DNA of 57,637 nt, taken from the IMG/VR virus record IMGVR_UViG_3300030110_000139, positions 1 through 57,637 of that record; one strand, written 5' to 3'. Below the pieces are notes generated by a model. The model was not told where the DNA came from. It did no database searches and saw only the letters and a list, made by a program, of their open reading frames with translations. This DNA comes from a virus. Lineage: Duplodnaviria > Caudoviricetes. The position numbers were made by a program, and so were the translations under genes. Positions 80-57,530 of this stretch are shown piece by piece (positions within the stretch are counted from its first letter, which is position 1; every line of letters starts with the position of its first letter).

Positions 80-508
80 TTATCTAATTTTAAACTTGCC
101 ACCTGCTCTTGCGATACCCATGCCTTTACAAACATTACCGCCACCACCCATTTTGACAGGTTTGACAGAACCACCAAATTTCATGTTTCTTAATATTTCA
201 AAGTCTTCTCCAGAAATCTTGCCGTCTTTGTTCTTATCTAATTTCTTTTGACCACCCTTGAGAGCATTAGCTGGATCACCACCAGCTTCCATTTTAACGG
301 CATCTTCTTTTTTCACTTTATCAATGGCTTCTGCTAATCCACCATCTTTCTTTTGATTTACAAGAGGCAGTATTTCTCTTATTTGTGATCGTAACTTATC
401 CATTCTTTTCAAAGAATCTCTTGAAGATCCAGGGACTTTTCTATCTATTTCATCATAAAGTTGTTTTTCTAATTTTAAAAATTTTTCAAAAGCTTCATCT
501 TTATTCAT
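80..508 (-). CDS. Small Lys-rich protein with repeated xxxGG motifs and an EF-hand-like DKNKDG segment (allele A)
   Basis: GGAG RBS; lies between terL and portal; homologous to 56651-57052. Confidence 0.8.
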   Translation of the reverse strand: MNKDEAFEKFLKLEKQLYDEIDRKVPGSSRDSLKRMDKLRSQIREILPLVNQKKDGGLAEAIDKVKKEDAVKMEAGGDPANALKGGQKKLDKNKDGKISGEDFEILRNMKFGGSVKPVKMGGGGNVCKGMGIARAGGKFKIR

Positions 509-509
509 A

Positions 510-803
510 TTACTCTCCTGTCTCTGGATTAACCATTCTTGATTTAGTCATATTAATTACTTCGCCTCCACCACTCATCATAATTGTTTGCTTTTGAATA
601 CTAAACGGACTTTTTGAGTCTGGAGTAATATCAAGCTTTTGTGGCTTTGCTTTAACTTTAGTCCTTTTTGCTAGTTTTTTCAAATTCTTTGTAAGCAAGG
701 CATCTTTCTTCTTCTGTTTATCAACTGATTTAATGCCAGTTTTGCCACTAGCAATTGTCTGAATAGTTTTAGCTACACTTTTTAGGGGATCTTTTGTTGT
801 CAT
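510..803 (-). CDS. Small basic protein with xxxGG motif (allele A)
   Basis: TAATG coupling to terL stop; homologous to the C-terminal part of 57054-57530. Confidence 0.8.
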   Translation of the reverse strand: MTTKDPLKSVAKTIQTIASGKTGIKSVDKQKKKDALLTKNLKKLAKRTKVKAKPQKLDITPDSKSPFSIQKQTIMMSGGGEVINMTKSRMVNPETGE

Positions 804-2272
804 TAATAATACTCCATCTTTCTTCTGTAGTTTGGCTCAAACTCTTCATCGTCTGGCGTAGTGATAAAACCACCTTGCCTAAATCTTAGTATAGCCTGTG
901 TCATCGAATCTGCCAAGTCATCATGGTCGCCATGTGGAAAACTTGCACATTCCTCTACAACTTCTTCTGCAAAATTAGCATCGGGTCTATACACCATACC
1001 GCTCTCAAACACAGGAGCACAGGCGTTCATACGAGCAAACTTATCTGCACCTTTGCTTGGTGTAAAGGGCGTAACGGGAACACCCATTCTTCTCAACTCT
1101 TGAGTAAGTGGCGTACCACTTGCTTTCTGTTCTATGAGAATCATGTCAGGATCATATGCTTCGCACAGTTCTTGTGCTTTAAGTTTAAGTTCTGGGAAAT
1201 CCCATCTGCCTTTCTCGGCATCAAGCAAGATGATGGCATCTCCTTCACCCTCGATGGGAGTAAAAATACCCCAAGTAGTAATAGCACTATAATCAGAACG
1301 CTCATTCTTAGTAAAAGCCGTGTCGTATGACTGTATGATATAGGAACAGGCAGGTGGCTCACTACGATTCCAAACATTCCACCACTCCCTTTTAATTATC
1401 GCACCTTCTTCGGCTGTCGGATTTTGCATATACTGGGCGTTCCACTTGCCTACGGGTATCGAGGCTTTCACGCCTTCTAATTCGTCTTTGCTCCAATACT
1501 CTGGCCAAAGTACGTTTCCAGTCTCTGGAAATATCGCTGGAAATTCTACTACTTCCCATTTGTCTGCACCCCCTTGAGCTTGTTTCTGTAACACTCTTGC
1601 TGTGAGATCCTTAATCCCCCAACGTGTCATCACTATAATGATAGAGCCTCCAGGTTGCAATCTTTGTCTTGGTCCAGATGTATACCATTCATAAATACTG
1701 TCAAGTGCCGTAGGACTTAAAGCATCTTGTTCAGAAACAGGATCGTCAATAATGAGCAAATCAGCACCTCGTCCAGCCAAAGCACCTCCAACACCAACGG
1801 CATAATATTCTCCACCTTTGTTCGTAGACCATCTACCAGATGCTTTGGCATCTGCAGCTAATCTAATGTCTGGAAATATATCACGGAAATCATCGCTATC
1901 AATTAAGTTTTTAACCTTACGACCAAAACCAACAGCAAGTTCTGCCGTGTGTGTTGCTTGTATAATCTTTAAATCAGGACGCTTTCCCATGAGCCAAGAA
2001 GGAAAAAGATAACTCGCAAACTCAGATTTAGTATGTCTTGGCGGCATATTAACAATCAAACGCTTAATCTTGCCATCAGCCACTTGTTGCAGTTTATCTG
2101 CGTATATCTTGTGATGCTTACCCTCAATAAAGCTAGGCCATATGCGTTTAACAAAATCCATATACAAATCTTGTGAAACCTTCTGTTTCTCAAGCATGGT
2201 CAAGCGTTCAAGCATGGGAGCTATCTTGGATAACTCATCATCACTCAAATACTCTGTGTATTCTAAATTCAT
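803..2272 (-). CDS. terL: Terminase large subunit
   Basis: Walker A-like MPPRHTKS, Walker B LLIIDDP, nuclease motifs SYDTA and HDDLADS. Confidence 0.95.
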   Translation of the reverse strand: MNLEYTEYLSDDELSKIAPMLERLTMLEKQKVSQDLYMDFVKRIWPSFIEGKHHKIYADKLQQVADGKIKRLIVNMPPRHTKSEFASYLFPSWLMGKRPDLKIIQATHTAELAVGFGRKVKNLIDSDDFRDIFPDIRLAADAKASGRWSTNKGGEYYAVGVGGALAGRGADLLIIDDPVSEQDALSPTALDSIYEWYTSGPRQRLQPGGSIIIVMTRWGIKDLTARVLQKQAQGGADKWEVVEFPAIFPETGNVLWPEYWSKDELEGVKASIPVGKWNAQYMQNPTAEEGAIIKREWWNVWNRSEPPACSYIIQSYDTAFTKNERSDYSAITTWGIFTPIEGEGDAIILLDAEKGRWDFPELKLKAQELCEAYDPDMILIEQKASGTPLTQELRRMGVPVTPFTPSKGADKFARMNACAPVFESGMVYRPDANFAEEVVEECASFPHGDHDDLADSMTQAILRFRQGGFITTPDDEEFEPNYRRKMEYY

Positions 2273-4089
2273 TAACTTGCTGCTAAGAAGTCATCTACCG
2301 CTTTGATTAATCCACCATTAGCCATGCCAATCACACCACCTTTTTTGGCTGAAACGACTGGTCTGGCTTGAGCACCCAATAGCTGCTCTATAAGTTTATT
2401 GAGGTCACCACTATCAAAGGTTACTGGCCTTATGTTTGATGATGCTGGTGCAAAAGGACTTGCAACAACAGTATCAGCAGTCACAGGCTGAAGGCTGCCT
2501 AATTGTCCACCTGTGCCACCAATAACATTAGGTGGTAAATCAGGCTTTGGCTCTTCAGGTTTAGGTGTTAGAGGTCTAATGATTGGAGTTGGCTCATTAT
2601 CGCTTGTGGCTCTATCTTGAATACTAAAATCCATACCCTCAATTAAATTGCCAAACCTATCTTTAGCACCCGTTATAGTGCCATCTCTATCAACAACGGG
2701 AATTAAGCCTCTCTCTGTAATGCCTCTCATAACTCTTTGATCAGTAATCTCGGCTAGTTTATTTAATCCTCTGCCTAAAAAGTTTGGTATATTTACACCA
2801 CCTATGTTTGTTGAGGGCTCAAAAATTCTTGACTTATCTTCTACAGACCTAGCGATTAAATCTCTGTCGGCAGCATCTTGTATATTTTTTATGTCTGTCT
2901 CTGTTAATCCAGAGGTTCCTAAACCACCAGATAAAGCTTTTTCAACAACTCCAGGCTTAACATCAAATGATACAAAAGGATCTGTAGTTTCCAGTTCATC
3001 ATCACGAGGATCTATGCTTGACGCAAAACCTATTCTCCCAAAAGAAGATGGTGCTTGATCCAACTCACTTTGACTATCAGGTATTAATCCTAGTTGATCA
3101 GGTCTTTCTGGCTTATCTAAATTCTCTGCAAGTGTGCCTTGCTCTAATGCTCTTTGTATATCTCTTGCTTGATTCCCTACATCAAAAGAAACAAATGGTC
3201 TGCTGGTGTCTGTTGGAGTAATGCCTGGATCAACAGTTCCTCTCATTATTTGATCTGTGTAAGCGGGCACACCTCTAACATCAAAAGGTGTCATGTCAAA
3301 AGCGTCTGCAACTGGCTTTGTTAAATCCACTGCGTCCATGACGTTCTTCTCACCTGTGCCTAAAATATCAGATGCAGTTGGTTGATTAAAGACTGCCCTA
3401 GAATAAGCAGCTGGATTTACGTTAGAGGCTTGGATAATACTATTGACAATATTCTCCCCTCTTTTATCACCATCTATCGCTGCAATTTGAAATTGATTTA
3501 AGGCACCAGCTAAATCATTGTCTTTAGCATAATCTTGCAAAGTCGCAATTGTGTCTTTTTTAAAAACTCTTTGTGCCTCGCTACCCTCTGGCAAATTTCT
3601 CGTGGCGTTTAAAATAGTTTGATTATTAAATGTTACGTTAGGAACAGATGGCGTGTCGTCACCGCCAGTTTGTCTGCCAATATCCGTTGCTTGTTGCAGT
3701 TCATCAGAACTAAAGACATCAGTATAGTCCATGTCACTATCTGGTGAAGAAGTGTCTATATTGTCATCTGAAAGATCAGACCTATCATCATCGGCAACGG
3801 AAGTTACTTCGTCAAAAAAGTCCCCAAAATCAGCAACCCCACCCTCTTGCATCATTTGTATGGGTTGATTGAATATGTCTATATTCGATAAAGCGGGTGC
3901 CATGTTTGGAGTCATAGCACCCATTGCTGGTGCCACGACTGGAGGATTAACTAATGTAGCACCATTCATGTTTTTTAAAAAATTATTAAAATTACCCCTG
4001 CTATCGGCAGTTGTATCTAATTTTACCTGCGGTGGTTGTGCAGGGGCAGCGGGGGTCGGCATAAACCCGCCCATAGGTCCATTTGCCAT
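2272..4089 (-). CDS. 605-aa acidic, Pro-rich hypothetical protein with xxxGG motifs; possible internal virion protein
   Basis: Long ORF, GGAG RBS, TAATG coupling to terL; MQEGG, AKKGG and MANGG motifs. Confidence 0.7.
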   Translation of the reverse strand: MANGPMGGFMPTPAAPAQPPQVKLDTTADSRGNFNNFLKNMNGATLVNPPVVAPAMGAMTPNMAPALSNIDIFNQPIQMMQEGGVADFGDFFDEVTSVADDDRSDLSDDNIDTSSPDSDMDYTDVFSSDELQQATDIGRQTGGDDTPSVPNVTFNNQTILNATRNLPEGSEAQRVFKKDTIATLQDYAKDNDLAGALNQFQIAAIDGDKRGENIVNSIIQASNVNPAAYSRAVFNQPTASDILGTGEKNVMDAVDLTKPVADAFDMTPFDVRGVPAYTDQIMRGTVDPGITPTDTSRPFVSFDVGNQARDIQRALEQGTLAENLDKPERPDQLGLIPDSQSELDQAPSSFGRIGFASSIDPRDDELETTDPFVSFDVKPGVVEKALSGGLGTSGLTETDIKNIQDAADRDLIARSVEDKSRIFEPSTNIGGVNIPNFLGRGLNKLAEITDQRVMRGITERGLIPVVDRDGTITGAKDRFGNLIEGMDFSIQDRATSDNEPTPIIRPLTPKPEEPKPDLPPNVIGGTGGQLGSLQPVTADTVVASPFAPASSNIRPVTFDSGDLNKLIEQLLGAQARPVVSAKKGGVIGMANGGLIKAVDDFLAAS

Positions 4090-4131
4090 GTAAAATCTCC
4101 GAAAAAAGCTTCTTTAGGAGATATTAACCCA

Positions 4132-5361: not shown

Positions 5362-6474
5362 CTAGTTTCCTAGTCTTGAAATTCTGTTATTAAACCAAGT
5401 CTTTAAAGACTCTGCTAAGTTTGTAAATGGGTGGGAGTCTGCATTGTTATTAATAACAACTTCACCTTGTGACTCCTTTTCCACTTCTAAGGGAATCTTA
5501 TAACCATTTAAGTCGTATGCACCATTTGATGTACCATTTAAATGTCCATAGTATTCTTGATTAAGACATATAACCAAACTACAATCGCCTAGTTTACGTC
5601 TTATAGTATTGATTGTACGTCTTACAGAACGTGCATCGTTAATGCCTACAGTATCCATTATTTCCCTTGTAGTCGCTCCATTATCTGTTTGTAACATCTC
5701 AAATACTTGATGAAGTTTGGTATTTCTTGGCATGGTATTTGTTAACGTATCCATGTATTTAACACCTTGATTTAAGACTTGGATTCTATGGTTAATAGTA
5801 TAATCAAACATATTAACAAGAAACATAATCCAATTCTTTAACTTGATATTATTTACTGTTCCTTGATGTTGTCTAAACTCAATTGTTCCACGTTGATTCC
5901 TAACATCAATATTTCTTAAATTAATAGAATAGAATTTACCAACTATTACATTTTTTAAATCGTTGTAATTTTGGGAGTCTTCTATTCTATTTAAGAAACC
6001 ATCAATGGGACTCGCATATCTTGAATTTCTACGACTTGGTGCAAGAAAACTTGATATGAAGTCTTGATATTGAGCATATCTATAAACAACGTCTTTGATA
6101 ACTTCAAACTGAAACATATCATTTGAATCTTGAAAATATGTATCATTGTCTTTGAATAGTTGAATTGATCTTCTATTAAATTCTTCACTATCCATTGTTA
6201 TTGGTTTAACTCCAATGTGAACATGATGTCCACATTGGCGAGTGATTCTCCCACCATTGGCAATAATCAAGTCATTAACTTGACTTGAATACTCCCAAGT
6301 AGATTCTGCCTTACTACTAAGTGGTGGGAAGATAATCTCGCATCCACTAGTTAAACTCGCATCGTGTTTAACTTTAATAAAGTTTAATGTAGGATGGTTA
6401 GCAAATAGATTACTACCATTTAAGACAGATAATCCATCTACTTCCCTTTCAAATCCTAAAGCTACATCAATCAT
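5362..6474 (-). CDS. Putative amidoligase (COOH-NH2 ligase type 2) with a C-terminal winged-helix-like extension
   Basis: GFERE, HDASL, GCEIIFPPL, CGHHVHIG, YSINL and GTIEFRQHQGT motifs. Confidence 0.8.
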   Translation of the reverse strand: MIDVALGFEREVDGLSVLNGSNLFANHPTLNFIKVKHDASLTSGCEIIFPPLSSKAESTWEYSSQVNDLIIANGGRITRQCGHHVHIGVKPITMDSEEFNRRSIQLFKDNDTYFQDSNDMFQFEVIKDVVYRYAQYQDFISSFLAPSRRNSRYASPIDGFLNRIEDSQNYNDLKNVIVGKFYSINLRNIDVRNQRGTIEFRQHQGTVNNIKLKNWIMFLVNMFDYTINHRIQVLNQGVKYMDTLTNTMPRNTKLHQVFEMLQTDNGATTREIMDTVGINDARSVRRTINTIRRKLGDCSLVICLNQEYYGHLNGTSNGAYDLNGYKIPLEVEKESQGEVVINNNADSHPFTNLAESLKTWFNNRISRLGN

Positions 6475-31752: not shown

Positions 31753-32656
31753 TAAAAGGTGCTATTTGTGATAGTGTTGTATATGCACCTATCCCTTGCA
31801 AAAATGGATTTGCAGCTGGTTGTGTGGCTTGTGTAAATGTTGATGGAATACTTGAACTAGGCATACCTTGTAGTAAGTTTTGACCTAATTGTAATCTTGT
31901 AAAAGGTTCTTGTGCTTGCTGTAACATATTTGCTCTTTGTGCATCTAATTGTGCTTGTTGTTGTCTTTGTCTTAATGCACCTAATTGTGATAGTTGAGAT
32001 ATGTCTGCTTGACCTAAAGCTTGTTGTAAACGCCCAATATCGCTTGTTGTACCAGCTAAAGTGCCAAACGCTTGTCCAAGACCACCAGATAGTCTTCCAG
32101 CCTCTTGTGAGGCTTTTAAAGCTTGTCCAAACCCTTGTGATAAAAGTTTTGATAGAGTATCGCCCTTAACATCTTGTAACCCTCTTTCCGTTTCTGCTCT
32201 TTGCACACCCTCTCTTGATCCACCAAAAGCACCAGACCTAATGGCTTGTTGGGCCGCTCCAGCTCTACGCATATCAGCTTGTCTATTAAGTTGACGCATT
32301 GCAACATCAATAACTTGCTCTTGAAATGGGTCTTGAAATTTTTTTATTGATTCGGGTTGTAAAAAGCCTAATCCACTTGTTAAGGCTTGTTGTGCTGCAA
32401 GTGATTGATTGGCTGCACCTTGTAAAAATGGTTGATATTGACCAACCATTTGCTCGCCTAATTCTGCTGCTCTAGCTGTGAGTGGATCCATACCAGCAAT
32501 TTGTATTCCTGGCAGACCAAGAGGACTATCTAATAATCCAGCGGTAGTCTGTTCTTCACCATCAAAAGTACCAAATGCTGATTGTAGTAATCTTTTTTGA
32601 AGACCTTCTAAAAATGGTGGTAATCTTTGTATATTTTCATAAGTTTGTGTTGCCAT
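31730..32656 (-). CDS. Gln/Ala/Gly-rich DNA pilot/ejection protein
   Basis: DPFQEQVID...GAFGGSR motif and composition. Confidence 0.65.
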   Translation of the reverse strand: MATQTYENIQRLPPFLEGLQKRLLQSAFGTFDGEEQTTAGLLDSPLGLPGIQIAGMDPLTARAAELGEQMVGQYQPFLQGAANQSLAAQQALTSGLGFLQPESIKKFQDPFQEQVIDVAMRQLNRQADMRRAGAAQQAIRSGAFGGSREGVQRAETERGLQDVKGDTLSKLLSQGFGQALKASQEAGRLSGGLGQAFGTLAGTTSDIGRLQQALGQADISQLSQLGALRQRQQQAQLDAQRANMLQQAQEPFTRLQLGQNLLQGMPSSSIPSTFTQATQPAANPFLQGIGAYTTLSQIAPFSGGPTGK

Positions 32657-33453
32657 TACGCCCTCGACTCTAAATTATCCATCATGTTATAGGCTCTTTG
32701 TATGCCTTTTCTTTGATTTCCACCACCAAGACCTTTGACAGCATCTTTAGTCAAAACAAACTCTCCAGCCATTAACATAGCTGGAACATCATCTTTTGTG
32801 CCAGAACCCTCAGATGGGTCAATTCCACCTGTTCTTCTTGGAAAACTCATAGGACCACCATCTGCAGCATATGTTATGCCACCTAATTGCCCTCCAGGAC
32901 CACCAAACCCAAATGGCCTTTGTTGAAACTCTCTTTGTTCTTCTTCATCGTCATCGCCAGCAAGCAACTGTGCAATTAATCCAGCTGTAAGACCCTCGCC
33001 AAGTCTTGTATTTAACAATCTTGCTAATAAATTATCATCTGCAATGCCCGCAGATTTTAATAACTCTCCACTAAATGTTCTAGGAGTTCCAGCAATTTTT
33101 TCTCGTGCAACTTCAACTGGTGGCTTTGTACCTGTAGATGTTGCTGTCCCTACAGTTTGATCGCTTCTTGTCATTGCAAAAGGTAGTTTCTCACCAGTTG
33201 GCGTAGAGCGAACATTAGTTCCCTCAACAGGTGCCTGTTGACCAGAAAAATTGTCAAATGCCATACCACCTATACCAGAAAGTAAAGCATTTCGCACAGC
33301 GTCTTTGTTTTTGCCACCCATTAGCTTTGATGTTATTGCTCCTGTGGCTAATCTACTAACAAATGGACTAACTGAAGTACCAGCTATGCCCGGTCCTAAA
33401 GCACTACCAACAACAACAGGTAAAATATCTTTTAGTAGATCTCCTAAACTCAT
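32656..33453 (-). CDS. Virion protein with AADGG motif and a tape-measure-C-terminus-like segment
   Basis: GSGTKDDVPAMLMAGEFVLTKDAV. Confidence 0.65.
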   Translation of the reverse strand: MSLGDLLKDILPVVVGSALGPGIAGTSVSPFVSRLATGAITSKLMGGKNKDAVRNALLSGIGGMAFDNFSGQQAPVEGTNVRSTPTGEKLPFAMTRSDQTVGTATSTGTKPPVEVAREKIAGTPRTFSGELLKSAGIADDNLLARLLNTRLGEGLTAGLIAQLLAGDDDEEEQREFQQRPFGFGGPGGQLGGITYAADGGPMSFPRRTGGIDPSEGSGTKDDVPAMLMAGEFVLTKDAVKGLGGGNQRKGIQRAYNMMDNLESRA

Positions 33454-44612: not shown

Positions 44613-45280
44613 TATCCAACCCTATAATAATCAAGTTTGGGTGTTACATTAAATGCTGATCTATCTCTATCTTCAGCCATCGCTCTTTCAAACTCTTCTT
44701 CATACACAGATTTAAGAAGTTGTATTCTATCGGGTGCTCTTTTCATAGCTATATAATAAGCCAATCCAGCTGTTAGACAAGGTATAAATCTAAAGGGTAT
44801 CTCAAGAGTGTTAACTTGCGTATCAGCGTCTTGCATCCTTGTTAAAGCATCAAAGACAATAACATCTGTGCTGTTTTCGGGTGTTGGGTATAATTTTAGA
44901 TTAGGAGTTATTTGTCTATCCAAAAAATATTGTGTTGGTCTACCTGTTGATGTCTTGTTTGGTAGATTAAGAAAGGTATCTCTGCTAATTCTAGTCATGC
45001 TAAAATCCGTGCCACTTCTTTTTACAACCACTGATAAAATATCTATTATATCTGTTGACAAGCTGTACTCTGAATCATTTGATGTCAATGCTTGAGTTCT
45101 TTGCTCAATAGTCCATTGATTAAGGCCACGATTTGCCCACTCAGCAAGCATAATATTTAAAGAACGCCTAGCAGTTTGCAAATCATAACCAGTTTTAGCC
45201 TCTAAGCCACATCTCTCAAAAGCCTCTTCAATGTACTCAGCTACATCTAAATTAAAGTCAGTAGAGCTTGAAGTGGTCAT
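44612..45280 (-). CDS. Head-tail adaptor-like protein
   Basis: EEAFERCG, ARRSLN...EWANRG, GRPTQY, GLAYY. Confidence 0.7.
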   Translation of the reverse strand: MTTSSSTDFNLDVAEYIEEAFERCGLEAKTGYDLQTARRSLNIMLAEWANRGLNQWTIEQRTQALTSNDSEYSLSTDIIDILSVVVKRSGTDFSMTRISRDTFLNLPNKTSTGRPTQYFLDRQITPNLKLYPTPENSTDVIVFDALTRMQDADTQVNTLEIPFRFIPCLTAGLAYYIAMKRAPDRIQLLKSVYEEEFERAMAEDRDRSAFNVTPKLDYYRVG

Positions 45281-45441
45281 TAGGCTTTACCACCTTTTTT
45301 CATTTTCTTCATAGCCATTCCACCACCACGCATTTTCTTAGCCATTCCACCGCCACGCATTTTTTTTGGTTTCATAGCCATGCCACCACCTCTCATTTTT
45401 TTAATTCCAGATGCTTTCATTTTTCTAGGACTCATTGCCAT
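45280..45441 (-). CDS. 53-aa basic protein built of KKMRGGGM repeats (absent from ORF track)
   Basis: MAMSPRKMKASGIKKMRGGGMAMKPKKMRGGGMAKKMRGGGMAMKKMKKGGKA; AGGAG RBS; TAATG coupling. Confidence 0.85.
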   Translation of the reverse strand: MAMSPRKMKASGIKKMRGGGMAMKPKKMRGGGMAKKMRGGGMAMKKMKKGGKA

Positions 45442-46007
45442 ACTTCACTCCTTTTAAGTTTGTTATAGTATTGTTGTCTTTGCTCATAAATATCTTCAAC
45501 ATTGTACTCATTATAATATTTATCATAATATCCAAGTTTCTTCAATTTATTTGCACTTTCTTGTAACTTTGTTAATCGTTGTACGAAAATCAAAGCATAT
45601 TCTTCCTTAACAATATTTGCAAATGTGCCGTCATCAATAAGTTCATTTACATCATCGTTAGGGTGAAATCCCATCAACCAAATATCTTTTTGTTTGTATT
45701 TGCCTTCTTGAATTTTTTCATTTACATCACTTAAATGTTTATGAAATTTTTCATTATTTTCAAAACACATATCAACAATAATTATTAAATCTTTGTTATC
45801 TTTAAAACAATCTATCAAAGTATCTAAACAATAATATGAACTGGTGTTTTTAAATGCAAAGCTTACTTTTTTGTCTTTCCAAGCTGTTTTTGCAAAAGGA
45901 CAAGATGGAAGATTGTTATAATTTTTGTTTGGCTTTTCTAATGCAAATCTTGACCATTCACGAATTTCTTCACAAATATGATCCTCAAGATTTTTATACT
46001 CATCCAT
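45432..46007 (-). CDS. DUF1415-like protein
   Basis: CPFA and FHP motifs. Confidence 0.55.
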   Translation of the reverse strand: MDEYKNLEDHICEEIREWSRFALEKPNKNYNNLPSCPFAKTAWKDKKVSFAFKNTSSYYCLDTLIDCFKDNKDLIIIVDMCFENNEKFHKHLSDVNEKIQEGKYKQKDIWLMGFHPNDDVNELIDDGTFANIVKEEYALIFVQRLTKLQESANKLKKLGYYDKYYNEYNVEDIYEQRQQYYNKLKRSEVWQ

Positions 46008-46288
46008 TACTTTGTCTTCCTACGCCTAGCTGCAGCTACTCTTCTTGGCTTACCAGCTGGTTGACCTAATCTTTTCTTTTGTGCGATACGTTTTCTTTTT
46101 TCTGAGGCAGACATCTCCGAAGCAGTTTTCGGAGTTTTCTTACTAATCCTTTTACTTGGACGACAATAAGGCGTACCACGCTTCTCACCCTTTTGACGAC
46201 CACATTTTTTACCTGTCTTAACATCTTTCCAGTCCTCCTTAAACCATCGTTTGAGAGCTAAACCAGCTTTTGTTTTTCTCACAGCCAT
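46007..46288 (-). CDS. Highly basic small protein
   Basis: LKRWFKEDW, PYCRP; Lys/Arg-rich; coupled. Confidence 0.75.
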   Translation of the reverse strand: MAVRKTKAGLALKRWFKEDWKDVKTGKKCGRQKGEKRGTPYCRPSKRISKKTPKTASEMSASEKRKRIAQKKRLGQPAGKPRRVAAARRRKTK

Positions 46289-46569
46289 TATCTAAACTTT
46301 GTTACTTTTCTTCTATTGCTCATAACTGCACCACAACCCCTTGCAATATTAGGATTTTTAGATGGTCGTTTAACTTTACCCTTTGACACATTTCCGCCAT
46401 TTTTCATTTCTACTACACCACCCATAGCTTTTTTCTTTGCTTTTTTACCACCTTTACCATAGTTGGCTGCTCCTACCTTTCGGCATTTTGCGATGGCTCC
46501 TGAAGCATAAGCTGATGGAAAAACCCTATATCTAGCTTTTACTTTACGATAACAAGCGTCTTTAGGCAT
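46288..46569 (-). CDS. Basic small protein with xxxGG motifs
   Basis: PSAYASG, KAMGG, MKNGG, ARGCGA. Confidence 0.75.
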   Translation of the reverse strand: MPKDACYRKVKARYRVFPSAYASGAIAKCRKVGAANYGKGGKKAKKKAMGGVVEMKNGGNVSKGKVKRPSKNPNIARGCGAVMSNRRKVTKFR

Positions 46570-46967: not shown

Positions 46968-47252
46968 TTAACACTTCCATCTTCTTCTTGCTTGTCTTAA
47001 CCTACTGTTTGGATTCTTGGCTGCCTTTGGAAACTTTTTCATTTGACCTGCTGATCTTGCACAAAAGGACTTTCTTCTTTTAGCTGCCTTGCTTCCCTTT
47101 TTAACTTTACCTGTTACGGCAGTTTTTAATTTACTGCCTGGATTGTCACGTCTATATCTTGCAACACCCGCTTTAGTCATTCCCGCTCCACTCTTGGTGG
47201 AACGGAAATACTTTTTAGTTTTAGGAGGCTGTTTATCTTGCCTTCTAGCCAT
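46968..47252 (-). CDS. Highly basic small protein
   Basis: GMTKAG, NPGSKL, RRKSFCAR, RRRWKC. Confidence 0.75.
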   Translation of the reverse strand: MARRQDKQPPKTKKYFRSTKSGAGMTKAGVARYRRDNPGSKLKTAVTGKVKKGSKAAKRRKSFCARSAGQMKKFPKAAKNPNSRLRQARRRWKC

Positions 47253-48406: not shown

Positions 48407-49318
48407 TTATGCGGCTCCTGGTGAACCAAAGACAGCACGAGGATCTGAAAAACCAAAGGCATAACGCTCTCTAGCTTTATATCTCATGTTGCCTGTATCG
48501 AAATCAGCTTCCATGCTTGTACTTAATGGGATTCTTTCAAAATATTTAAATCCATTAGGTGCATCTGTTTTGATAAAAAACGCATCTGTGTCTGTTAAGA
48601 AGTGGTTAATTGTATAACCCTCTGGTAACATACCCATATTTTTAATTGCGTTTAAATCATTGTCAGAAGTGCCAACTCTTAAAGTTGACTCAAGCAGTCT
48701 GTCTGCAACAAATTGCAATGCAGGTGGAATAATTAGTTTCATTCCTCTTAAAGCAACAATCATATTTCTCTCATCAACAAAGTTTGAAATGTCAATAAGA
48801 GCATTTTCTAATGATGTTTCATTAAGATCTGCTGCAGTTGATGGCTCGTTTCTAAACGTACCACCGCCACCTAATGGGTGGTCTGTTGCACAAAGCTCTT
48901 TGCCATCACCACCTGTAAAGCTTGAATTAAACGCATTGTTTAATGTAGCAGCAGATTTGACTTGCTTTGTGTGTGCCATTGACCTTGCTAATGCTCTTGT
49001 ATATCTTGCTCCAAGTTGGTCATACAAATTATCTTCCATTGCTTCTTCTGTTAAGGCAAAAGCTAACGCAATAGTTTCCATTGTATATCTTGAAGTATAG
49101 ACTTCATTTGCAGAATCAAAGGTTACACCAGCACCTTCTGATTTTGTTGCAGCATTGCCGAAACCACTCAACATTACCTCTTCTTCAAAAGCTCTATCAG
49201 AAGATTCTGTTTCATAAATTTCAGTATGCTCTTGATCATAACGATCATATTCCATGCCGAATAAAGCGTTAAGACCAGGTTCTAACTCTTTTACGAGTTG
49301 TGCTCTTGATATAGCCAT
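48407..49318 (-). CDS. Major capsid protein (HK97 fold)
   Basis: MAISRAQL.KELEPGLNALFG, LIIPPAL, KARERYAFG.SDPR; followed by terminator. Confidence 0.88.
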   Translation of the reverse strand: MAISRAQLVKELEPGLNALFGMEYDRYDQEHTEIYETESSDRAFEEEVMLSGFGNAATKSEGAGVTFDSANEVYTSRYTMETIALAFALTEEAMEDNLYDQLGARYTRALARSMAHTKQVKSAATLNNAFNSSFTGGDGKELCATDHPLGGGGTFRNEPSTAADLNETSLENALIDISNFVDERNMIVALRGMKLIIPPALQFVADRLLESTLRVGTSDNDLNAIKNMGMLPEGYTINHFLTDTDAFFIKTDAPNGFKYFERIPLSTSMEADFDTGNMRYKARERYAFGFSDPRAVFGSPGAA

Positions 49319-50395: not shown

Positions 50396-51331
50396 TTAGG
50401 CTCCTTTCCTGGAATCAATTTTAGCCACCTCTTTAGCATATTGCTCCAAAGGTATTCTCATTTTTTTAGCAAACGCAACTTGTCCAGGGGTTAGTTCTAT
50501 TTGCTTCTTCCGCCCACTATTAGAAACGGCTTTGCCGTTCACAGGTGCAACAGTCTGGGCGACTTTTCTGTCACTCTGAAATTTTTGTGGAAATTCTTTT
50601 CTCATACGTTTATCAATTTCCATATAATACTCATCTGTAGATGGGTCTATTCCATCTTCAGCAACAACTTGTTCATGTATGGCTTGAGCACCTCTTGTCA
50701 TAACCATGTCTTTGCCAAACCATGAATTTTTATCAAGCCAACCTTGTAACTTTGGATCTAACTCTTGTTTTTGCGGGGTCTGCCTCTTTGGGGTTTCAGA
50801 TTGTCCCTCATCTTTTTTAGTTCCTTCAGTTTCGGTTCTAAGTTTTTGTATTCTGAGTCTTTCGTTCTCAATAGCGAGTTTAGCCATGAGGTCACTTGCC
50901 TCAGACATTTTTTCAGCATCTCCAGCATCAAAAGCCTCCTTATAAAGTTTTTTTGCTTGTGCGGTTTGTGCTTCTATTCTGTTTCCAAACTCAGAAGTGT
51001 AACCAGAATTAAGTTGTGATAGCTGTTTTTGCAACTGATCATTCTTTTTCTTTTGTTCTTCTGCATATTTAAAAGCAGCATCAGCCTCTTCCAAAGCTTG
51101 TTTTCTTTTGGCTGTTAATTGGTTTATACGTTTTTGAACATTTTCAGAATAATTCTCTAGTTCATCTTCTGGTTGTTCAGAACGAACTTCTGTTCGCTCT
51201 TCTTCTTTTGCTTGAACTTTTGGAGTCTCTTCTTTTTTTTCTTCTGACTCTTCAATATCAACAATTACATTTTCTTCAGGAGCTTGTTGCTCTACAATTT
51301 TTTCTTGTGCTTCATTCATCATTACCTCCAC
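50396..51331 (-). CDS. Capsid scaffolding protein
   Basis: Acidic N-terminus, coiled coil VQKRINQLT, C-terminal LT..Q...AKK...PLEQYAK. Confidence 0.7.
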   Translation of the reverse strand: MEVMMNEAQEKIVEQQAPEENVIVDIEESEEKKEETPKVQAKEEERTEVRSEQPEDELENYSENVQKRINQLTAKRKQALEEADAAFKYAEEQKKKNDQLQKQLSQLNSGYTSEFGNRIEAQTAQAKKLYKEAFDAGDAEKMSEASDLMAKLAIENERLRIQKLRTETEGTKKDEGQSETPKRQTPQKQELDPKLQGWLDKNSWFGKDMVMTRGAQAIHEQVVAEDGIDPSTDEYYMEIDKRMRKEFPQKFQSDRKVAQTVAPVNGKAVSNSGRKKQIELTPGQVAFAKKMRIPLEQYAKEVAKIDSRKGA

Positions 51332-51807
51332 TATACATAAGAAACATCTGTTGGATCAAGTATTTTCGCTATAATATTATCATCATTTATAAGCCTTAAC
51401 TCAAGACCCTCCACTTTGAACCTATTTCCAGCATATCTTCCCATAAGTACCCATTCTTTCTCAGAACAGTATGCTCCAGTTGGGAATTTATCTTTGTCTT
51501 TATAAGCGTCAGGGCCCATTTTTACAACATATGCAACAACTGTTGCAAATGATTCTCTGTCTCGTGTTGCATCTGGTATGTAAATCCCCCCTTTTGTCTT
51601 TTCTTTTGGATAATATGGAACAACTAATATTCTATAACCAGTTGGTTGAGGTAATCTGTCAATCACAGAAGAATCTATTTTTGATGGATCATCTTCATTT
51701 TTGTTGGGTTCTTTATCTTGACCAAATCCTTTTCCTATAGCTGGTGGAACTGGATTAATCTGTTTTTTTGCCAATAATCTATCTGGCACATAAAGTTTTT
51801 TATTCAT
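51331..51807 (-). CDS. groES: GroES-like co-chaperonin
   Basis: PTGYRILV, KTKGGIYIP, VVKMGPDAY, RYAG, LINDD.I. Confidence 0.85.
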   Translation of the reverse strand: MNKKLYVPDRLLAKKQINPVPPAIGKGFGQDKEPNKNEDDPSKIDSSVIDRLPQPTGYRILVVPYYPKEKTKGGIYIPDATRDRESFATVVAYVVKMGPDAYKDKDKFPTGAYCSEKEWVLMGRYAGNRFKVEGLELRLINDDNIIAKILDPTDVSYV

Positions 51808-53047: not shown

Positions 53048-53410
53048 TTACTTACCATTCTTTTGCATATACGCACTCGTACCCATGTATGTACCAACAA
53101 TACCAGCACCACTTAAAAATATTAAATCTGTAACTGCAGCAAGTCCTTTTAATTTCTCGTCTGAACACCAAGGCGAAGCTAAAAATATTGCGTATAATCC
53201 CATAAATATTAACGTATATCTAGCCATTCTAAGTTGTGCTAAATTTTTTCTTAATCTTGTTTCAGTTTCTTTAATCTCTTTAGCATGGTTTAATTCTGCA
53301 TCAGAAACAATGCCATCACCATCTTCGTCATAATCTGCATAAATAGATTGTTTTTGTAATCTTTTCTGTGTCATCCTATCGTTAATCCTAAAATAAAAGC
53401 CATTGACCAA
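53048..53410 (-). CDS. Membrane protein with DxDxDG EF-hand-like loop and two TM helices
   Basis: DEDGDGIVSDAE followed by two hydrophobic segments. Confidence 0.65.
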   Translation of the reverse strand: MVNGFYFRINDRMTQKRLQKQSIYADYDEDGDGIVSDAELNHAKEIKETETRLRKNLAQLRMARYTLIFMGLYAIFLASPWCSDEKLKGLAAVTDLIFLSGAGIVGTYMGTSAYMQKNGK

Positions 53411-53447: not shown

Positions 53448-53930
53448 TTATCTTTTTTCCTTATATAACCATGCAAGAAATATTATAAATCCAATTACAG
53501 TTATGACAAGAATTGTCAAACCAATCCATTCCCAAATTTTTCTTACAAATTCTTGTCTCTCATAAATCTCTTCTTTTCGTCTTTTTCTAATCTCAGCTTC
53601 CATTTGCAAAATCTCATTCCACGAATTAGCTCCGTAGTGGAAATTTAAAAATGATTTAAGTTCTTGTCGTTGTGCTTCAAATTTTTTTTTAGCTGTAAAA
53701 GCTTCAATAGCCGAGGCTTCTATTTCTTTTCCTTTAAATAGTTTTCTAAGTGGTGAGGCATTTTTAGCAGATTTTTCAGTATTCTCAACATCTGAAACGG
53801 CTCCCATCCAGCGTGACAGGTCTTTTCCCATAGACTCAATTTCACGGCCTGCGGCAAAGCCACGTTTTATGGCGTTAAATGCCGTATTAGCGGCTGTAAT
53901 GGCTATGCCAATTGAAGCGGGATCGAGCAT
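53448..53930 (-). CDS. Coiled-coil protein with C-terminal TM anchor
   Basis: MLDPAS N-terminus; hydrophobic C-terminus. Confidence 0.7.
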   Translation of the reverse strand: MLDPASIGIAITAANTAFNAIKRGFAAGREIESMGKDLSRWMGAVSDVENTEKSAKNASPLRKLFKGKEIEASAIEAFTAKKKFEAQRQELKSFLNFHYGANSWNEILQMEAEIRKRRKEEIYERQEFVRKIWEWIGLTILVITVIGFIIFLAWLYKEKR

Positions 53931-54163
53931 TAAAATATCCCCTTGAATTTTTGTGGTTTTGCTATTTCAGAAAACTTTTTAATTATGCCGCCGTCACGTT
54001 TTTTTACGGGTTTTCTTCGCTTTCTTTTTTGGCTTGTTGACTTTGATTTCCCCGCCGTTGACAACGCTATCGCTATTGCTTGTCTCTGCGGATACTTTTC
54101 TGACCTCAACTTCCTTATATTCTGGCTGATTGTTTTCTGGCTCTTGCCTTTCTTCAACGGCAT
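53930..54163 (-). CDS. Basic small protein with KRDGG motif
   Basis: [16 protein letters not shown]...[12 protein letters not shown]; AAGGA upstream; TAATG coupling. Confidence 0.72.
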
Positions 54164-54248: not shown

Positions 54249-56648
54249 TTATCCTTTCATTGATCTCATAGCAGCTACATCACGAGTTGTTTGATCTCTT
54301 TGTGCCGCTATTTCTTCTTGTTGATCTAATCTTTGTTGATCAAGTAAAACATCATTTCTTTCTTTTTCTTTATCCAATGTTTGCTTTTGTTCAAACTGGT
54401 CTTGTTTCTGTGCAATTTCTTGTCCTCTTAACGCTAACTCTTGTTTTCTAATTGTTACAAGCGGGTCTTCACTTGGTGGTGGTGTTAACGCTTGTGCATA
54501 TTGCTCTTGTATTTCTGCTGCTAACTCAGCACTTCTTGAAGCCACTTGTGTAGCCATTTGTTGCATTGCATTAGGGTCTTGTTGCATCATTGCTTGTTGC
54601 TCTGGTGGAACAGCAGCCATGACTTCTTGTTGTGCTTGTAGTTCAGACATCATTGCTATGTGTTCTGATATGTGTCCTTGTAATGTCATAAGTATTGCAG
54701 CATTAGCTTGTGCCACGGGTGTACTAATCATAGCTAAATGAGCTGTAATATGTGCTTGATGATTTTGTTCTGGAAAAGCTTGAAGACTACCACCCTTTAA
54801 TGCCTCTTGATTTTCTTTCGCTGGATTCATGGGCATTGGCTGTGGGGGAGGTTGCAACACAGCCTCTATGTTTGTAACCCCTAACGCTTCATACATTTTT
54901 CTATAGGCTTGGTACATTCCATTTGGCCCATGAATATCTGGATTGCTTTGTGCTAATTGTAACTGTGTTTGTGCCAAAGCAATACGTTGTGACATTGAAA
55001 ATATATTTGGATCTGAAACAGGAAGTATATCAATTCTGTCATCAAAATCTGTTTGTTTAATCTCTGGTGGTGCTCCTGGTACTTGATAAGGGTACATAGG
55101 AACATCCATAGCAAATAAACGTGCAAGTAACTTAAACTCTATCTTTTGTGAGTAGTGTAAGCGTTTATGAATTGCAGACATTACCTTTGTGCCACGTTCC
55201 ATAATAGCCATAGTTGTACCAACTGGTGCGTTGCCTTGCATCTCGCCAACTTTCATGTCAGCCATTGATGCAAAGCGTCTACCAGAGTCGATAAGCGTTC
55301 CAAGTAATGAATACAAGGTTTGAGATGGCTCCTTAAATGGCAACGGCATAATTGCTTGACGCAAATCCATGCCAACCATATCTACATCTCTGAACTCGCC
55401 AGGATTTAGCGGAGTTTCGTCATCTCTAATCCTTGCACCTCTTGCTTTAAATCCTGCAGGTAAGTTTGATAAAGTACCTGCGTCAATGAGTTGTCTAAGT
55501 ATTGATGTTGAAGCTCTTGATAGCCCACCTATCATGTGAGTAAGACCAAAGCCATAAAACCCAAGACCAGGTAAGAACTTATAATGAATAAAATAAGGGA
55601 TCTTCCTACGGAACGGATCACCCTCATTGAAATTACGTTTGATCGATAATATTTCACCAGATTTCTCCACTATTGTGACGACATAGGGCATTTTTAATCC
55701 AGTGGGTTCTTGGTCTTGACCAATATCTTCAAACCCAATTAAATCTAAATCTGTGTGAATTTCATATAATGTTATTTCTTCATTATCGCTTGTGCCTTTT
55801 CCTACACCCTGAATATCGTCTATTGTTTCTTTGACCTCATCATAATTGGTACCTCCACTATCTGATGAGGGTAAATCTATATCTCTATAAAACCCTTGAA
55901 GTTGTAACTTCCTAACCTCATTTTTGCCCATACGGACTACATGAGTTATGCGTGAAGATGATCGTAAGTCTGTTGCATTGTATGGCACAATTAAATCTTC
56001 TGCATGAACAAACTTTGAAACAGCCCTTTGCATAGAAGGGTCAAAATAAACTTTTTTAAATGCTGAACCTACAACGGGAAGATAAAATAACATTTGATCT
56101 AACTCAGGATCATATTCTTCCATCTCGTAAGTTATTTGATAATTCATATAATTTTTAACACGCTCTGCTTGTGCTAAAAGTTCTGGACTTTCTGCACCAA
56201 CAATATGTGTTCTAACAGGTCCACTTGCAGGTAACATCTCTCTGTACGCTTGTGCCTGAAACTGTGTAACGCTTTCTGCTAATAAAGGATGAACTACTCC
56301 AGAAGCACCTTCAAAAGGTTCTGCTCTGTCTTCATAGTTCATTCCAAGTAATTCTAATCCACCTTTATACTGTTCTTCCCAATCTCTTCTTGAAGATATA
56401 TCGTCATCAATGGCACCAACTAAATCGCTTGAAATAACACCCAAATCACCATCTTCAATTAATTCAGCTAAGTTAGCATCAAAAGGAACTGGCATTGTTG
56501 CCTGTATTTCTTGTTGCATTTCACCAATAATGGCAGAGCCATCATCAAGTTCAGTTACACCTGGAGTAATCTCTGCTTCAGGTAAAGAAACTTGAATACC
56601 TTGTGGTTGCTCTGTGTTTTCTACACCATTTACTTTTTCAATTGCCAT
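54249..56648 (-). CDS. Portal protein
   Basis: 799 aa; HPLLAES, GSAFKKVYFD, GFYGFGL, LRQLIDAG, Gln-rich C-terminal coil; downstream of terL on the circle. Confidence 0.88.
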   Translation of the reverse strand: MAIEKVNGVENTEQPQGIQVSLPEAEITPGVTELDDGSAIIGEMQQEIQATMPVPFDANLAELIEDGDLGVISSDLVGAIDDDISSRRDWEEQYKGGLELLGMNYEDRAEPFEGASGVVHPLLAESVTQFQAQAYREMLPASGPVRTHIVGAESPELLAQAERVKNYMNYQITYEMEEYDPELDQMLFYLPVVGSAFKKVYFDPSMQRAVSKFVHAEDLIVPYNATDLRSSSRITHVVRMGKNEVRKLQLQGFYRDIDLPSSDSGGTNYDEVKETIDDIQGVGKGTSDNEEITLYEIHTDLDLIGFEDIGQDQEPTGLKMPYVVTIVEKSGEILSIKRNFNEGDPFRRKIPYFIHYKFLPGLGFYGFGLTHMIGGLSRASTSILRQLIDAGTLSNLPAGFKARGARIRDDETPLNPGEFRDVDMVGMDLRQAIMPLPFKEPSQTLYSLLGTLIDSGRRFASMADMKVGEMQGNAPVGTTMAIMERGTKVMSAIHKRLHYSQKIEFKLLARLFAMDVPMYPYQVPGAPPEIKQTDFDDRIDILPVSDPNIFSMSQRIALAQTQLQLAQSNPDIHGPNGMYQAYRKMYEALGVTNIEAVLQPPPQPMPMNPAKENQEALKGGSLQAFPEQNHQAHITAHLAMISTPVAQANAAILMTLQGHISEHIAMMSELQAQQEVMAAVPPEQQAMMQQDPNAMQQMATQVASRSAELAAEIQEQYAQALTPPPSEDPLVTIRKQELALRGQEIAQKQDQFEQKQTLDKEKERNDVLLDQQRLDQQEEIAAQRDQTTRDVAAMRSMKG

Positions 56649-56650
56649 GT

Positions 56651-57052
56651 TTATCTAAGCTTAAATTTTCCGCCTGCTCTGGCAGCACCCATGCCTCTAC
56701 AGACACCGCCACCTGAACCCATCTTAACAGGTCCACCTCTTTCAAACTTTTTTGCCATACCTGGGTCCATCTTTTCTTGAACAGCTTCTGGTAATTTTGA
56801 AAACCCTTTAAACTTTTTTGGCACCGCTTCACCACCAGTTTCCATTTCTTTAGCCTTAACCTTTTCAATGGCTTCTGCTAATCCACCATCTTTCTTTTGA
56901 TTTACAAGAGGTAATATTTCTCTTATTGCTGCTCGTAACTTATCCATTCTTTTCAAAGAATCTCTTGAAGATCCAGGGACTTTTCTATCTTTTTCATCAA
57001 AAAGTTGTTTTTCTAATTTCAAATATTTTTCAAAAGCTTCATCTTTATTCAT
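56651..57052 (-). CDS. Allele B of the xxxGG protein at 80-508
   Basis: Near-identical N- and C-termini, different central module. Confidence 0.8.
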   Translation of the reverse strand: MNKDEAFEKYLKLEKQLFDEKDRKVPGSSRDSLKRMDKLRAAIREILPLVNQKKDGGLAEAIEKVKAKEMETGGEAVPKKFKGFSKLPEAVQEKMDPGMAKKFERGGPVKMGSGGGVCRGMGAARAGGKFKLR

Positions 57053-57053
57053 A

Positions 57054-57530
57054 TTACTCTCCTGTCTCTGGGTTAACCATTCTTGATTTTGTCATATCTA
57101 CAACTCCACCCTCACTAGCCATCATAATTGATCGCTTCTGAATACTAAAAGCACCTCCTGGCTTTGGCGTAATATCCAAAGTTTGTGGCTTTGCTCTTAC
57201 TTTAGTCCTTTTTGCTAGTTTTTTCAAATTTTTTGTTAATGCTGCGTCTTTACGCTTTTGCATATCAACTGTCTTAATACCTGTCTTACCTTTTTCTATG
57301 TTGGTAATCATCTTTGCTAAACCTTTGAGAGGGTCTACATTTCCACCAGCTTTAAATAATTTTAACTGTTTTATTTTGCCAGGATTAACTTGTTTTATTT
57401 TAGACCCTTTATCAAACATACGATTATTTGTATCTTTTCCTCTTGCCTGCAAGTCTTTGTAAACCATGTCTCTGTCAGCTTGCTCACTTGCAAGACCTAC
57501 AAATTTGCTAAAGTCTTTTTTGCCTGGCAT
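57054..57530 (-). CDS. Allele B of the protein at 510-803 with an extra N-terminal extension
   Basis: Homology begins right after FKAGG. Confidence 0.8.
   Translation of the reverse strand: MPGKKDFSKFVGLASEQADRDMVYKDLQARGKDTNNRMFDKGSKIKQVNPGKIKQLKLFKAGGNVDPLKGLAKMITNIEKGKTGIKTVDMQKRKDAALTKNLKKLAKRTKVRAKPQTLDITPKPGGAFSIQKRSIMMASEGGVVDMTKSRMVNPETGE

Follow-up and report, generated by a model that had tools for sequence, protein, structure and literature searches.

The internal proteins of phage T4 carry an N-terminal capsid targeting sequence that is cut off by gp21, and MuF polymorphic toxins, which lie next to portal genes, join a constant folded N-terminal domain to recognisable toxin payloads. 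Among the Lys-rich DNA condensers, histone H1-like bacterial proteins, protamines and RGG boxes are very basic, disordered and built from short repeats of varying number. Paired glycines can also mark sites of cleavage: a double-glycine leader is an N-terminal stretch of ~15-30 residues whose last two are GG, encoded close to a C39 peptidase-ABC transporter, and coronavirus PLpro and Ulp-type enzymes cut at GG. According to PMC4246237, the adenovirus protease cuts (M/I/L)XGG-X or (M/I/L)XGX-G, and Met-Arg-Gly-Gly is its model substrate. In encapsulins, as PMC8346489 describes, short conserved terminal peptides, or repeated motifs in disordered regions, dock unrelated cargo inside an HK97-fold shell. 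The present analysis concerns a recurring Gly-Gly motif (the GG unit) in IMG/VR record IMGVR_UViG_3300030110_000139, a tailed phage whose 57,637 bases were analysed whole (the window; classed by IMG/VR as linear and 100% complete). The best explanation, held tentatively, is that the motif-bearing genes, among them genes A and B between the terminase large subunit (TerL) and portal genes, encode mosaic, basic head-module proteins, largely disordered by prediction, in which the GG unit is both a repeat or hinge motif and a recombination joint.

The genes on which this account rests, with their two conserved neighbours, are as follows.

80..508, minus strand: gene A, left-end variant, 142 amino acids (aa)
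510..803, minus strand: gene B, left-end variant, 97 aa
803..2272, minus strand: TerL (phrog_38, E 2e-113)
2272..4089, minus strand: 605-aa low-complexity protein, upstream of TerL
32656..33453, minus strand: 265-aa Gly-rich protein, upstream of the ejection-protein genes
45280..45441, minus strand: gene for a 53-aa Met/Lys/Gly peptide, with KKMRGGGMA three times and MKKGGKA
46288..46569, minus strand: 93-aa protein with a SAYASG module (residues 3-38) and a phrog_727 match
53930..54163, minus strand: 77-aa protein directly after the portal gene, with a phrog_2423 N-terminal module, a basic linker, KRDGG and a tail
54249..56648, minus strand: SU10-type portal protein (PHROG/Pfam, relatives)
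56651..57052, minus strand: gene A, right-end variant, 133 aa, 70% identity to 80-508
57054..57530, minus strand: gene B, right-end variant, 158 aa

The pentapeptides listed in an earlier, sequence-only reading of this DNA were all found in minus-strand open reading frames (ORFs) at the coordinates it gave, and its expectation that the motif exceeds what glycine content alone would produce is borne out by comparison with within-protein shuffles. M..GG occurs 15 times in all ORFs where 3.7 are expected (0/2000 shuffles reach this), and 13 times against 3.6 +/- 1.8 once the duplicated right-end genes are removed (0/400), counts that are non-independent and inflated because MRGGG x3 is a tandem DNA repeat and MMSGG and MSGGG overlap. 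Twelve of the 13 fall in late genes and one in an early gene, the late-gene bias that had been proposed. The extended form [MYF]..GG.[VIFA] is found 13 times against 2.7 (0/400), and plain GG 150 times against 126 (20/2000 shuffles reach this); since M..GG is strongly enriched and plain GG barely so, the signal lies in the context of GG rather than in the amount of Gly. The loose form [MFKA]..GG, as first described, is only modestly enriched (42 against 27.6; 4/400), the strong signal belonging to M..GG and the extended forms. One proposed member stood in part: AADGG is present in the 265-aa protein, where neither GG (9 against 6.6 expected) nor M..GG (absent) rises above chance, and AADGG may have arisen there by chance. 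This protein matches its relatives only over the C-terminal 60-70 residues. The family is made up of genes A and B, the 605-aa pre-TerL gene and the 53-, 93- and 77-aa genes of the head block; isoelectric points of the motif-bearing proteins are 9.7-12, except for the 605-aa and 265-aa proteins, both outside the 22 most basic. Internal ribosome binding sites were considered as a source of the motif and dropped, its codons being mostly GGT GGT/GGA and not Shine-Dalgarno-like GGAGG.

The motif is shared widely among relatives. With TerL as query, 80 IMG/VR loci were fetched, 77 of which hold both the TerL end and the portal start. The interval between them encodes one to four small ORFs (Lys 14%, Gly 14%, Met 7%), and in 73/77 loci at least one protein there has two or more GG runs. 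A logo drawn from 380 G-runs in 101 dereplicated proteins of the 77 loci has M at position -3 in 29% (4x background) and otherwise Y or F, V at +2 in 44% (8.8x) and K at +3 in 32%, with G enriched again at +/-8. By this consensus the unit is ~9-11 residues long, about [KR]-[MYF]-x-x-G-G-x-V-K. Tandem units are spaced 8-11 residues apart, an 11-residue form, KGMKNGGKVxT, being repeated six times in one locus (L037) and five in another (L040), and the preferences for M/Y/F at -3 and V at +2 hold where codons differ. In three related full records [MYF]..GG.[VIFA] is enriched each time (11 against 3.1, 15 against 3.1 and 10 against 3.2), and strict M..GG is clearly enriched in one only (11 against 4.1; 1/300 shuffles reach this).

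The units lead into conserved C-terminal tails, the last GG run of the related proteins lying at a median of 6 residues from the C-terminus as against 30 in shuffles, and 2-34 residues from it in each of the seven window genes. In 64/77 loci there is a tail of one of two types: the first reads ...GRGG-x-[FY]KG-xx and the second ...[CS]RG-x-GAA-xx-G-xx-F-x-G-V-x, with the window variant ...CKGMGIARAGGKFKIR. The pre-TerL protein ends in a third conserved tail. Among 63 pre-TerL ORFs of related loci (55 distinct tails; length 63-1310 aa), most tails have hydrophobic-x-x-GG followed by a conserved ending of ~12-18 residues, for example ...GG-LIKAVDDFLA.., ...GG-AVTPNIDRFM.. or ...GG-SVSMGLGSL; the window's 605-aa protein carries MANGPMGG near its N-terminus, MQEGG, and a C-terminal AKKGG-VIG-MANGG-LIKAVDDFLAAS tail. 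In the 93-aa protein the SAYASG module is followed by KGG, KAMGG-VV and MKNGG-NV units and then by a tail, ARGCGAVMSNRRKVTKFR, that resembles the gene A tail. The gene A tail type also occurs in a cultured phage: HTVC023P gp32 starts like the 77-aa protein (MPL.., ..KAAGG; judged by eye) and ends in a gene A-type tail, ...RGVGAAIRGHKFIGVK, and gp30 of that phage carries GG runs.

Exchange of segments is seen most directly within the record itself, whose ends are two versions of one region.

1..910: left end, matching 56572-57637 in a blastn search of the record against itself
56572..57637: right end, a second copy holding the TerL end, gene B, gene A and the portal start

Identity in this overlap is 78% across the two small genes and 95% across the TerL 3' end. 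As the ends overlap, the "two terminal alleles" of the sequence-only reading are a single TerL/gene B/gene A/portal locus, read twice from two co-occurring population variants; the record passes round a genome that is circular or terminally redundant and goes on into the second variant, and since its ends are diverged copies (78-95% identity) the true genome is ~56.6 kb. Each variant is also known on its own from public sequences, the 142-aa form by a 97% match and the other by 65-70% matches of 133 aa. Left-end gene A consists of a helical head (residues 1-50), a KKDGG joint (nt 338-349), a LAEAIDKVK helix, MEAGG, an EF-hand-like cassette (~nt 170-277), MKFGG, MGGGG and the conserved tail VCKGMGIARAGGKFKIR. 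The right-end variant has the same head and tail, and a PKKFKGFSKLPE cassette in place of the EF-hand-like one, so that the segment replacement previously claimed is confirmed and lies between ME[AT]GG and [FR]GG. Both cassettes turn up in other contexts in related loci, and the PKKFKGFSKLPE cassette also begins separate genes (MPNTPKKFKGF...), which means that a start codon can occupy the place of a GG joint elsewhere. Left-end gene B has GKTGIKSVD as its basic core, a single GG unit, MMSGGG, and EVINMTKSRMVNPETGE as its tail; its second copy has, again as claimed, extra residues, namely 61 at the N-terminus ending FKAGG-NV, and this long form also occurs in L003, L012 and L013. Gene B ends in ...[MI][TN][KR]S.[MI][IV]NP.TGE, the C-terminal TGE being constant in every B-tail copy inspected (loci L001-L024).

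Gene A has 255 homologues, none named, and no tblastn match among 50,697 phage records. Among the homologues listed, 99/120 have a KDGG-LxEAI anchor preceded by at least 15 residues, and these upstream parts fall into 21 unrelated clusters of N-terminal heads, 40-100 residues long, all joining one constant part at K-D-G-G. The heads preceding the anchor include the SAYASG module of 46288-46569 (in P0042) and the gene B core (in P0011, ...ITMA|KDGG); a fusion of gene B to gene A, joined GG to GG, is found in P0011, L007 and L011. At the DNA level, unrelated sequence turns homologous exactly at AAR AAA GAT GGY GG, the KDGG codons. Nine gene architectures were counted in 12 loci whose TerL is 94-98% identical, the optional cassettes being a single EF-hand-like loop, PKKFKGFSKLPE or SDADR repeats. 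The number of units also varies in frame, as in the 53-aa gene, which contains a tandem DNA repeat at 45308-45402 (Tandem Repeats Finder periods 27 and 36 nt). This gene occupies the same place in 32/32 loci examined (32 chosen from 52 loci fetched, mostly those with downstream flank), with 3-6 GG runs per copy, the frame kept, and fixed ends, MAMSPRKM... and ...KKMKKGGKA.

Of the ends of high-identity blocks between homologues (at least 65% identity and 20 residues, trimmed to identity runs; 242 high-scoring segment pairs, 142 boundaries), 78% have a GG run no more than 3 residues away, compared with 36% of random positions, and so do 99/128 distinct contexts. The test leans toward this result because a conserved GG can lengthen an identity run; the control dipeptide AK, which is outside the unit, is found near block ends at 0.74x. 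The joints seen in alignments and in DNA are free of that bias. Taken with the 21 heads at K-D-G-G, the DNA joint and the in-frame changes in unit number, the block ends support the proposal that these genes are strings of exchangeable peptides, with modules bounded by the motif. Each protein begins with a head that can be exchanged, may contain cassettes, has GG units in varying number and ends in one of a few strongly conserved tails; the comparisons show these pieces to be swapped, fused, split and copied at GG units. Parts of window 1-4100 are present in 20 public runs, in every case on short contigs; four runs compared with 1-2400 gave fragments with single-contig joints (among them 350 to 506 and 134 to 300) beside the KDGG joint and the cassette, whose sides, of 22-45 letters at 85% likeness, are too weak to count.

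An alignment of 78 gene A sequences is invariant only at G56, G57, G112, G113, G124, G129 and L90; its last 17 residues are nearly invariant and the part before KKDGG is unalignable. An AlphaFold2 (AF2) model built on these 78 rows has two N-terminal helices, residues 3-22 and 30-50, with a predicted local distance difference test (pLDDT) score mostly ~80 (64 in block 21-30). Residues 51-142, which hold all the GG units and the invariant tail, stay below ~55 and are thus predicted to be disordered; a disordered segment with a nearly invariant end is what a docking peptide may be expected to look like. The EF-hand-like loop of gene A, DKNKDGKISGEDF, fits the canonical 12-residue EF-hand loop pattern, as a single, unpaired loop for which all Pfam EF-hand scores are under the gathering threshold (best 25.5 bits against 30). 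A second single loop of this kind, DYDEDGDGIVSDAE, occurs in a 120-aa membrane-like protein at 53048-53410, again with Pfam scores below threshold.

These features suggest how such proteins could arise and act. The short repeated coding sequence (AAR ATG/GAT .. GGT GGN) would offer a foothold for recombination and slippage, and selection would keep only in-frame products that retain a GG unit. In the protein the unit could serve as a flexible, cationic, multivalent linear motif, and the alternation of Lys and hydrophobic residues in GG-K-V-K-x-K-G-M-K-M might allow it to lie as an extended strand along DNA or along the inner surface of the capsid. The invariant tails would be docking peptides holding the proteins in the head.

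A connection with phage heads is suggested by the position of the motif genes, in the block of TerL, portal, capsid and adaptor genes, and by the company their modules keep. The other members of the head block are listed here.

45432..46007, minus strand: 191-aa DUF1415-like protein, its stop overlapping the start of the 53-aa gene
46007..46288, minus strand: 93-aa basic protein with a DUF5872 module, of the small basic head-block class and without the motif (Pfam)
46968..47252, minus strand: 94-aa basic protein with a DUF6321 module, pI 12, without the motif (PHROG/Pfam)
48407..49318, minus strand: major capsid protein, 303 aa, with no N-terminal delta domain evident (PHROG/Pfam)
50396..51331, minus strand: 311-aa acidic Glu/Lys/Gln-rich protein, read as the scaffold from composition and position
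51331..51807: GroES-like co-chaperonin with an N-terminal extension of ~50 residues and a mobile-loop region TKGG-IYIP

The DUF5872, SAYASG and DUF6321 modules of window 46007-47252 are fused in one 592-aa protein of a cyanomyophage, S-RIM8 gp114, and residues 3-30 of the 93-aa SAYASG protein match cyanomyophage proteins. SAYASG and DUF5872 occur together in an S-B68 protein annotated 'structural protein', a label taken from the record, whose note reads 'Phage T4-like structural protein, cyanophage only T4-like GC0119'. The modules are thus common to both groups, fused there and split in the window; the cyanomyophage proteins differ in having neither GG unit nor tails. In Acinetobacter phage AB1 a 457-aa head maturation protease (L223 1801-3174) opens, over 38 residues, with the phrog_2423 module of the 77-aa protein; the module also adjoins minor head protein genes in other phages. 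From these indirect indications it is plausible that the motif proteins are packaged in the head. Docking of the capsid protein (127-row alignment) with gene A residues 104-142 scored 0.00 in both runs, controls were not run, and the result counts neither way.

Among described systems, the encapsulins offer a close parallel, since the conserved C-terminal tails stand behind Gly-rich, predictedly disordered linkers on 21 heads, and a short conserved terminal peptide common to otherwise unrelated proteins is one mark of shell targeting. Some pre-TerL tails end in ...GLGSL, close to the TVGSL-type motif given in PMC8346489. The tail sequences otherwise differ from known cargo-loading peptides, and the shell to be entered would be a phage head filled with DNA. 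T4 internal proteins and MuF toxins likewise combine a constant targeting part with a variable payload in the head gene block; here, in contrast, the constant part is C-terminal and predicted to be disordered, and the heads of 40-100 residues belong to no known family. The window proteins resemble the Lys-rich DNA condensers in being very basic, repeat-built and, by prediction, disordered, and we know of no DNA-condensing family with a Met-/Gly-rich unit around a fixed GG-x-V core. The likeness to shell-targeting systems and DNA condensers is one of analogy, and membership in none of them can be claimed.

Several observations weigh against the mosaic head-module reading. None of the 21 head types matches a known family in Pfam. 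The microhomology at the joint, ~8-12 nt only, is short for homologous recombination. When the ends of all BLAST high-scoring segment pairs are taken (1317 boundaries), 33% lie within 3 residues of GG against 33% expected, so that the claim that breakpoints in homologues coincide with the motif stands for high-identity blocks and fails for alignment ends at large. Strict M..GG is unenriched in two of the three more distant records (8 against 4.6 and 5 against 4.6), where it is weak because Y and F take the place of M.

Some relatives lack such genes at the TerL-portal place: in CRP-902 the portal comes directly after TerL, and in HTVC027P a single 892-aa protein lies between the two. This would suit a by-product, in which a functionless, self-propagating low-complexity repeat has been spread by slippage through dispensable, weakly constrained genes; tandem DNA repeats, changes in copy number and the predicted disorder of the proteins point the same way. 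Such an origin is nevertheless distinctly unlikely. In 78 sequences GG stays invariant between flanks that are exchanged, and the tails hardly vary; the 53-aa gene keeps its frame and both its ends in 32/32 loci; the motif recurs in unrelated proteins from several parts of the genome and in 73/77 loci; and M/Y/F at -3 and V at +2 are kept despite differing codons.

The extreme variability of these genes beside conserved neighbours (TerL 94-98% identical, capsid proteins 87-97% among the matches listed) could instead reflect an arms race, the products being intracellular proteins of host takeover or counter-defence whose GG unit binds a host factor. GroEL is a candidate for that factor: the mobile loop of GroES is similar to GG with two hydrophobic residues after it, as found in the subset of units with GG-VV, GG-VI, GG-LI or GG-II, and the phage has its own GroES homologue (51331-51807) with a TKGG-IYIP loop. 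Against this, the commonest unit, GG-K-V-K, has no hydrophobic triplet, the genes lie inside the late packaging and head block, related modules occur in the record-labelled 'structural protein' and in another phage's prohead protease, and no match to a defence-related or other named family was seen, PADLOC being outside the search. A host-directed role is accordingly rated unlikely. The GroES-like gene is placed in the head block in HTVC023P and HTVC027P as well.

In the mosaic head-module reading proteolysis would be needless. The proposal that the proteins are cut at the motif proved unsupported, and the accompanying statement that no prohead protease is recognisable holds in family scans: among 86 ORFs no peptidase family was found in PHROGs (E<=1e-5) or Pfam (E<=1e-3, with 20 unknowns re-scanned at E<=5). 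The only protease-named match, phrog_4523 on the capsid protein, was set aside because it covers only the capsid part of a fused profile. PDB sequence searches with four head-block unknowns returned no relatives, and no longer homologue fused to a known domain was found (10 matches, at most 314 aa). The 194-aa protein encoded ahead of the capsid gene was modelled with AF2 as a possible unrecognised protease (32-row, 81-95% identical alignment), and the model, with a mean pLDDT of 36, gave no fold to compare.

Processing would mean that a phage or host GG-specific protease cuts the GG units, freeing the cassettes and cationic peptides of 9-12 residues. The adenovirus system offers a model, with a GG-centred motif, an upstream Met and several late, basic, DNA-associated-looking substrates; MRGG-G of the 53-aa gene fits both its rule and its model substrate, MRGG, and the window proteins share a basic, core-like character with the adenovirus substrates. 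Being in stretches with predicted disorder, the sites would be accessible, and the tails left after the last GG are short (2-34 residues), recalling ubiquitin-like precursors. The (M/I/L)XGG rule is nonetheless fitted by only 77/380 G-runs in the related proteins (20%) and 9/32 in the seven window genes, M/I/L being commoner one place further out (120/380). Conservation after GG is as strong as before it (V at +2 in 44%), and the strong +2 V and +3 K are unusual for such sites; such two-sided conservation suits a motif with a binding or structural role no less than it suits a site of proteolysis. No protein in the loci ending in ...GG was noticed by eye, though these were not counted. Longer homologues bring no fused protease, and the capsid protein lacks a delta domain and is accompanied by a separate scaffold-like gene, an arrangement usual in protease-free phages such as T7 and P22. 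The virus itself, a tailed phage with an HK97-type capsid, is outside the PRD1/adenovirus lineage. The double-glycine leader compares no better, the motifs here being internal and C-terminally biased, with no C39 or ABC transporter match. On the features tested, the motif falls outside the adenain-type and C39-type definitions, and processing at GG units is regarded as quite improbable.

The 191-aa protein coupled to the 53-aa gene bears on both sides of this question. It is conserved and has invariant C36, H89, H115, D118 and D119, residues that a protease could use. Of 20 members, 15 match DUF1415 weakly (best E 1e-4, short of the threshold) and 2 match DUF6875 faintly, an atlas look-up places it in clusters with DUF6875 (14-23% of members) and DUF1415, and a profile search found no PDB relative. 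DUF6875 has recently been described, in bioRxiv 10.64898/2025.12.11.692455, as a thiolate-ligated haem protein family, so that the Cys of the 191-aa protein need not be a nucleophile. From its sequence it is a candidate enzyme, unexpected in a structural block. A combined scheme, with adenovirus- or T4-like loading and maturation of the head, would have the tails dock N-terminal peptides and GG arrays in the capsid and an unrecognised GG-specific activity, supplied perhaps by the 191-aa Cys/His protein or by a host enzyme, cut the units; freed payloads and protamine-like peptides of 9-12 residues would then enter the host with the DNA. It is very improbable.

The capsid protein has more than 8000 matching database proteins (87-97% identical among the 120 matches listed), and with that many metagenome matches the phage group is a very common marine virus type. 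In it, a locus beside the most conserved genes changes its architecture through the exchange of short cassettes at a single fixed linear motif. This is a natural case of cassettes being shuffled at a joint defined in the protein, and it would account for the breaks and false closures that assemblies of these phages show at the TerL-portal locus. The GG unit and the invariant tails give a sequence-defined handle on small proteins that such phages may pack or deploy. Should the tails prove to be signals for loading the capsid, they would connect phage heads with the way encapsulins take up cargo, and could serve to bring proteins into phage capsids. The motif and these proteins are undescribed in the literature found on HTVC023P/HTVC027P, Gly-Gly capsid maturation, DUF5872/DUF6321 and DUF1415/DUF6875, supplements being outside the search, and the passages searched in PMC9599517 have nothing on either.

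The remainder of the genome supports the placement of the virus. All long ORFs are on the minus strand, and PHROG and Pfam scans of the 86 ORFs give a podophage layout: TerS, a DNA-modification cluster and replication genes; lysozyme, large internal or ejection-like proteins and fibres; and two SU10-type adaptors, a run of small basic proteins, the capsid protein, the GroES-like protein, the SU10-type portal and TerL. Judged by the portal, Pelagibacter phages HTVC027P and HTVC023P come closest among cultured phages (50% identity across 87-91% of length), followed by Roseobacter phages CRP-901/902, and the order portal, small genes, GroES, scaffold-like and capsid is also found in HTVC023P/027P. 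By portal, capsid, GroES-like gene and gene order, the record is a distantly related HTVC023P-type marine podophage. The 311-aa scaffold-like protein has no family or PDB match, and an atlas look-up of a 165-aa protein returned only unnamed viral clusters. IMG/VR calls the window record linear; the class given to a related record (G004, 58,398 b) is that of direct terminal repeats. In many of loci L041-L077 an acidic, Cys-rich protein of ~140 aa (C..C.YY, ending ...DIF) lies directly before the portal, for example in L043 (144 aa) and L060 (143 aa); the window has no such gene.

The 53-aa peptide contains ~23% Met, 23% Gly and 34% Lys+Arg. SAR11, the host of the cultured relatives, reportedly needs an outside supply of glycine and reduced sulphur, and for a phage whose cultured relatives infect SAR11 this composition is odd.

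A DNA-modification cluster occupies 5362-14590, with a further methylase beyond it.

5362-6474: Amidoligase_2
8704-9168: Mom-like protein
10216-10695: GGACT/AIG2-like cyclotransferase
11673-12860: N6/N4 methylase
12862-13548: DpdA-like queuine tRNA-ribosyltransferase homologue
13762-14253: Vut_1-like protein
14237-14590: DUF7768 / nucleoside deoxyribosyltransferase-like protein
16897-18372: C5 methylase

The Gly-Glu end of gene B is superficially like the GG[QE] end of Pup, and Pup-like tagging of gene B was considered. It was rejected because Amidoligase_2 is present in 5/5 related records whether or not they have a B-type gene, so that the two do not co-vary; the candidate tagging enzymes (Amidoligase_2, 5362-6474, and GGACT, 10216-10695) sit inside the DNA-modification cluster.

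Two minor features of the DNA complete the description. The 1066-aa fibre-like gene contains tandem repeats at 38223-38320 (30 nt, 3.3 copies) and 39097-39283 (66 nt, 2.9 copies). The octamer GCTGGTGG, the E. coli Chi sequence, occurs in 6 copies against 0.9 expected, at 279, 39047, 41650, 50300, 51740 and 57343; two of these copies are the Ala-Gly-Gly codons of MEAGG and FKAGG, and the excess is probably a by-product of the preference for GGT codons in GG.

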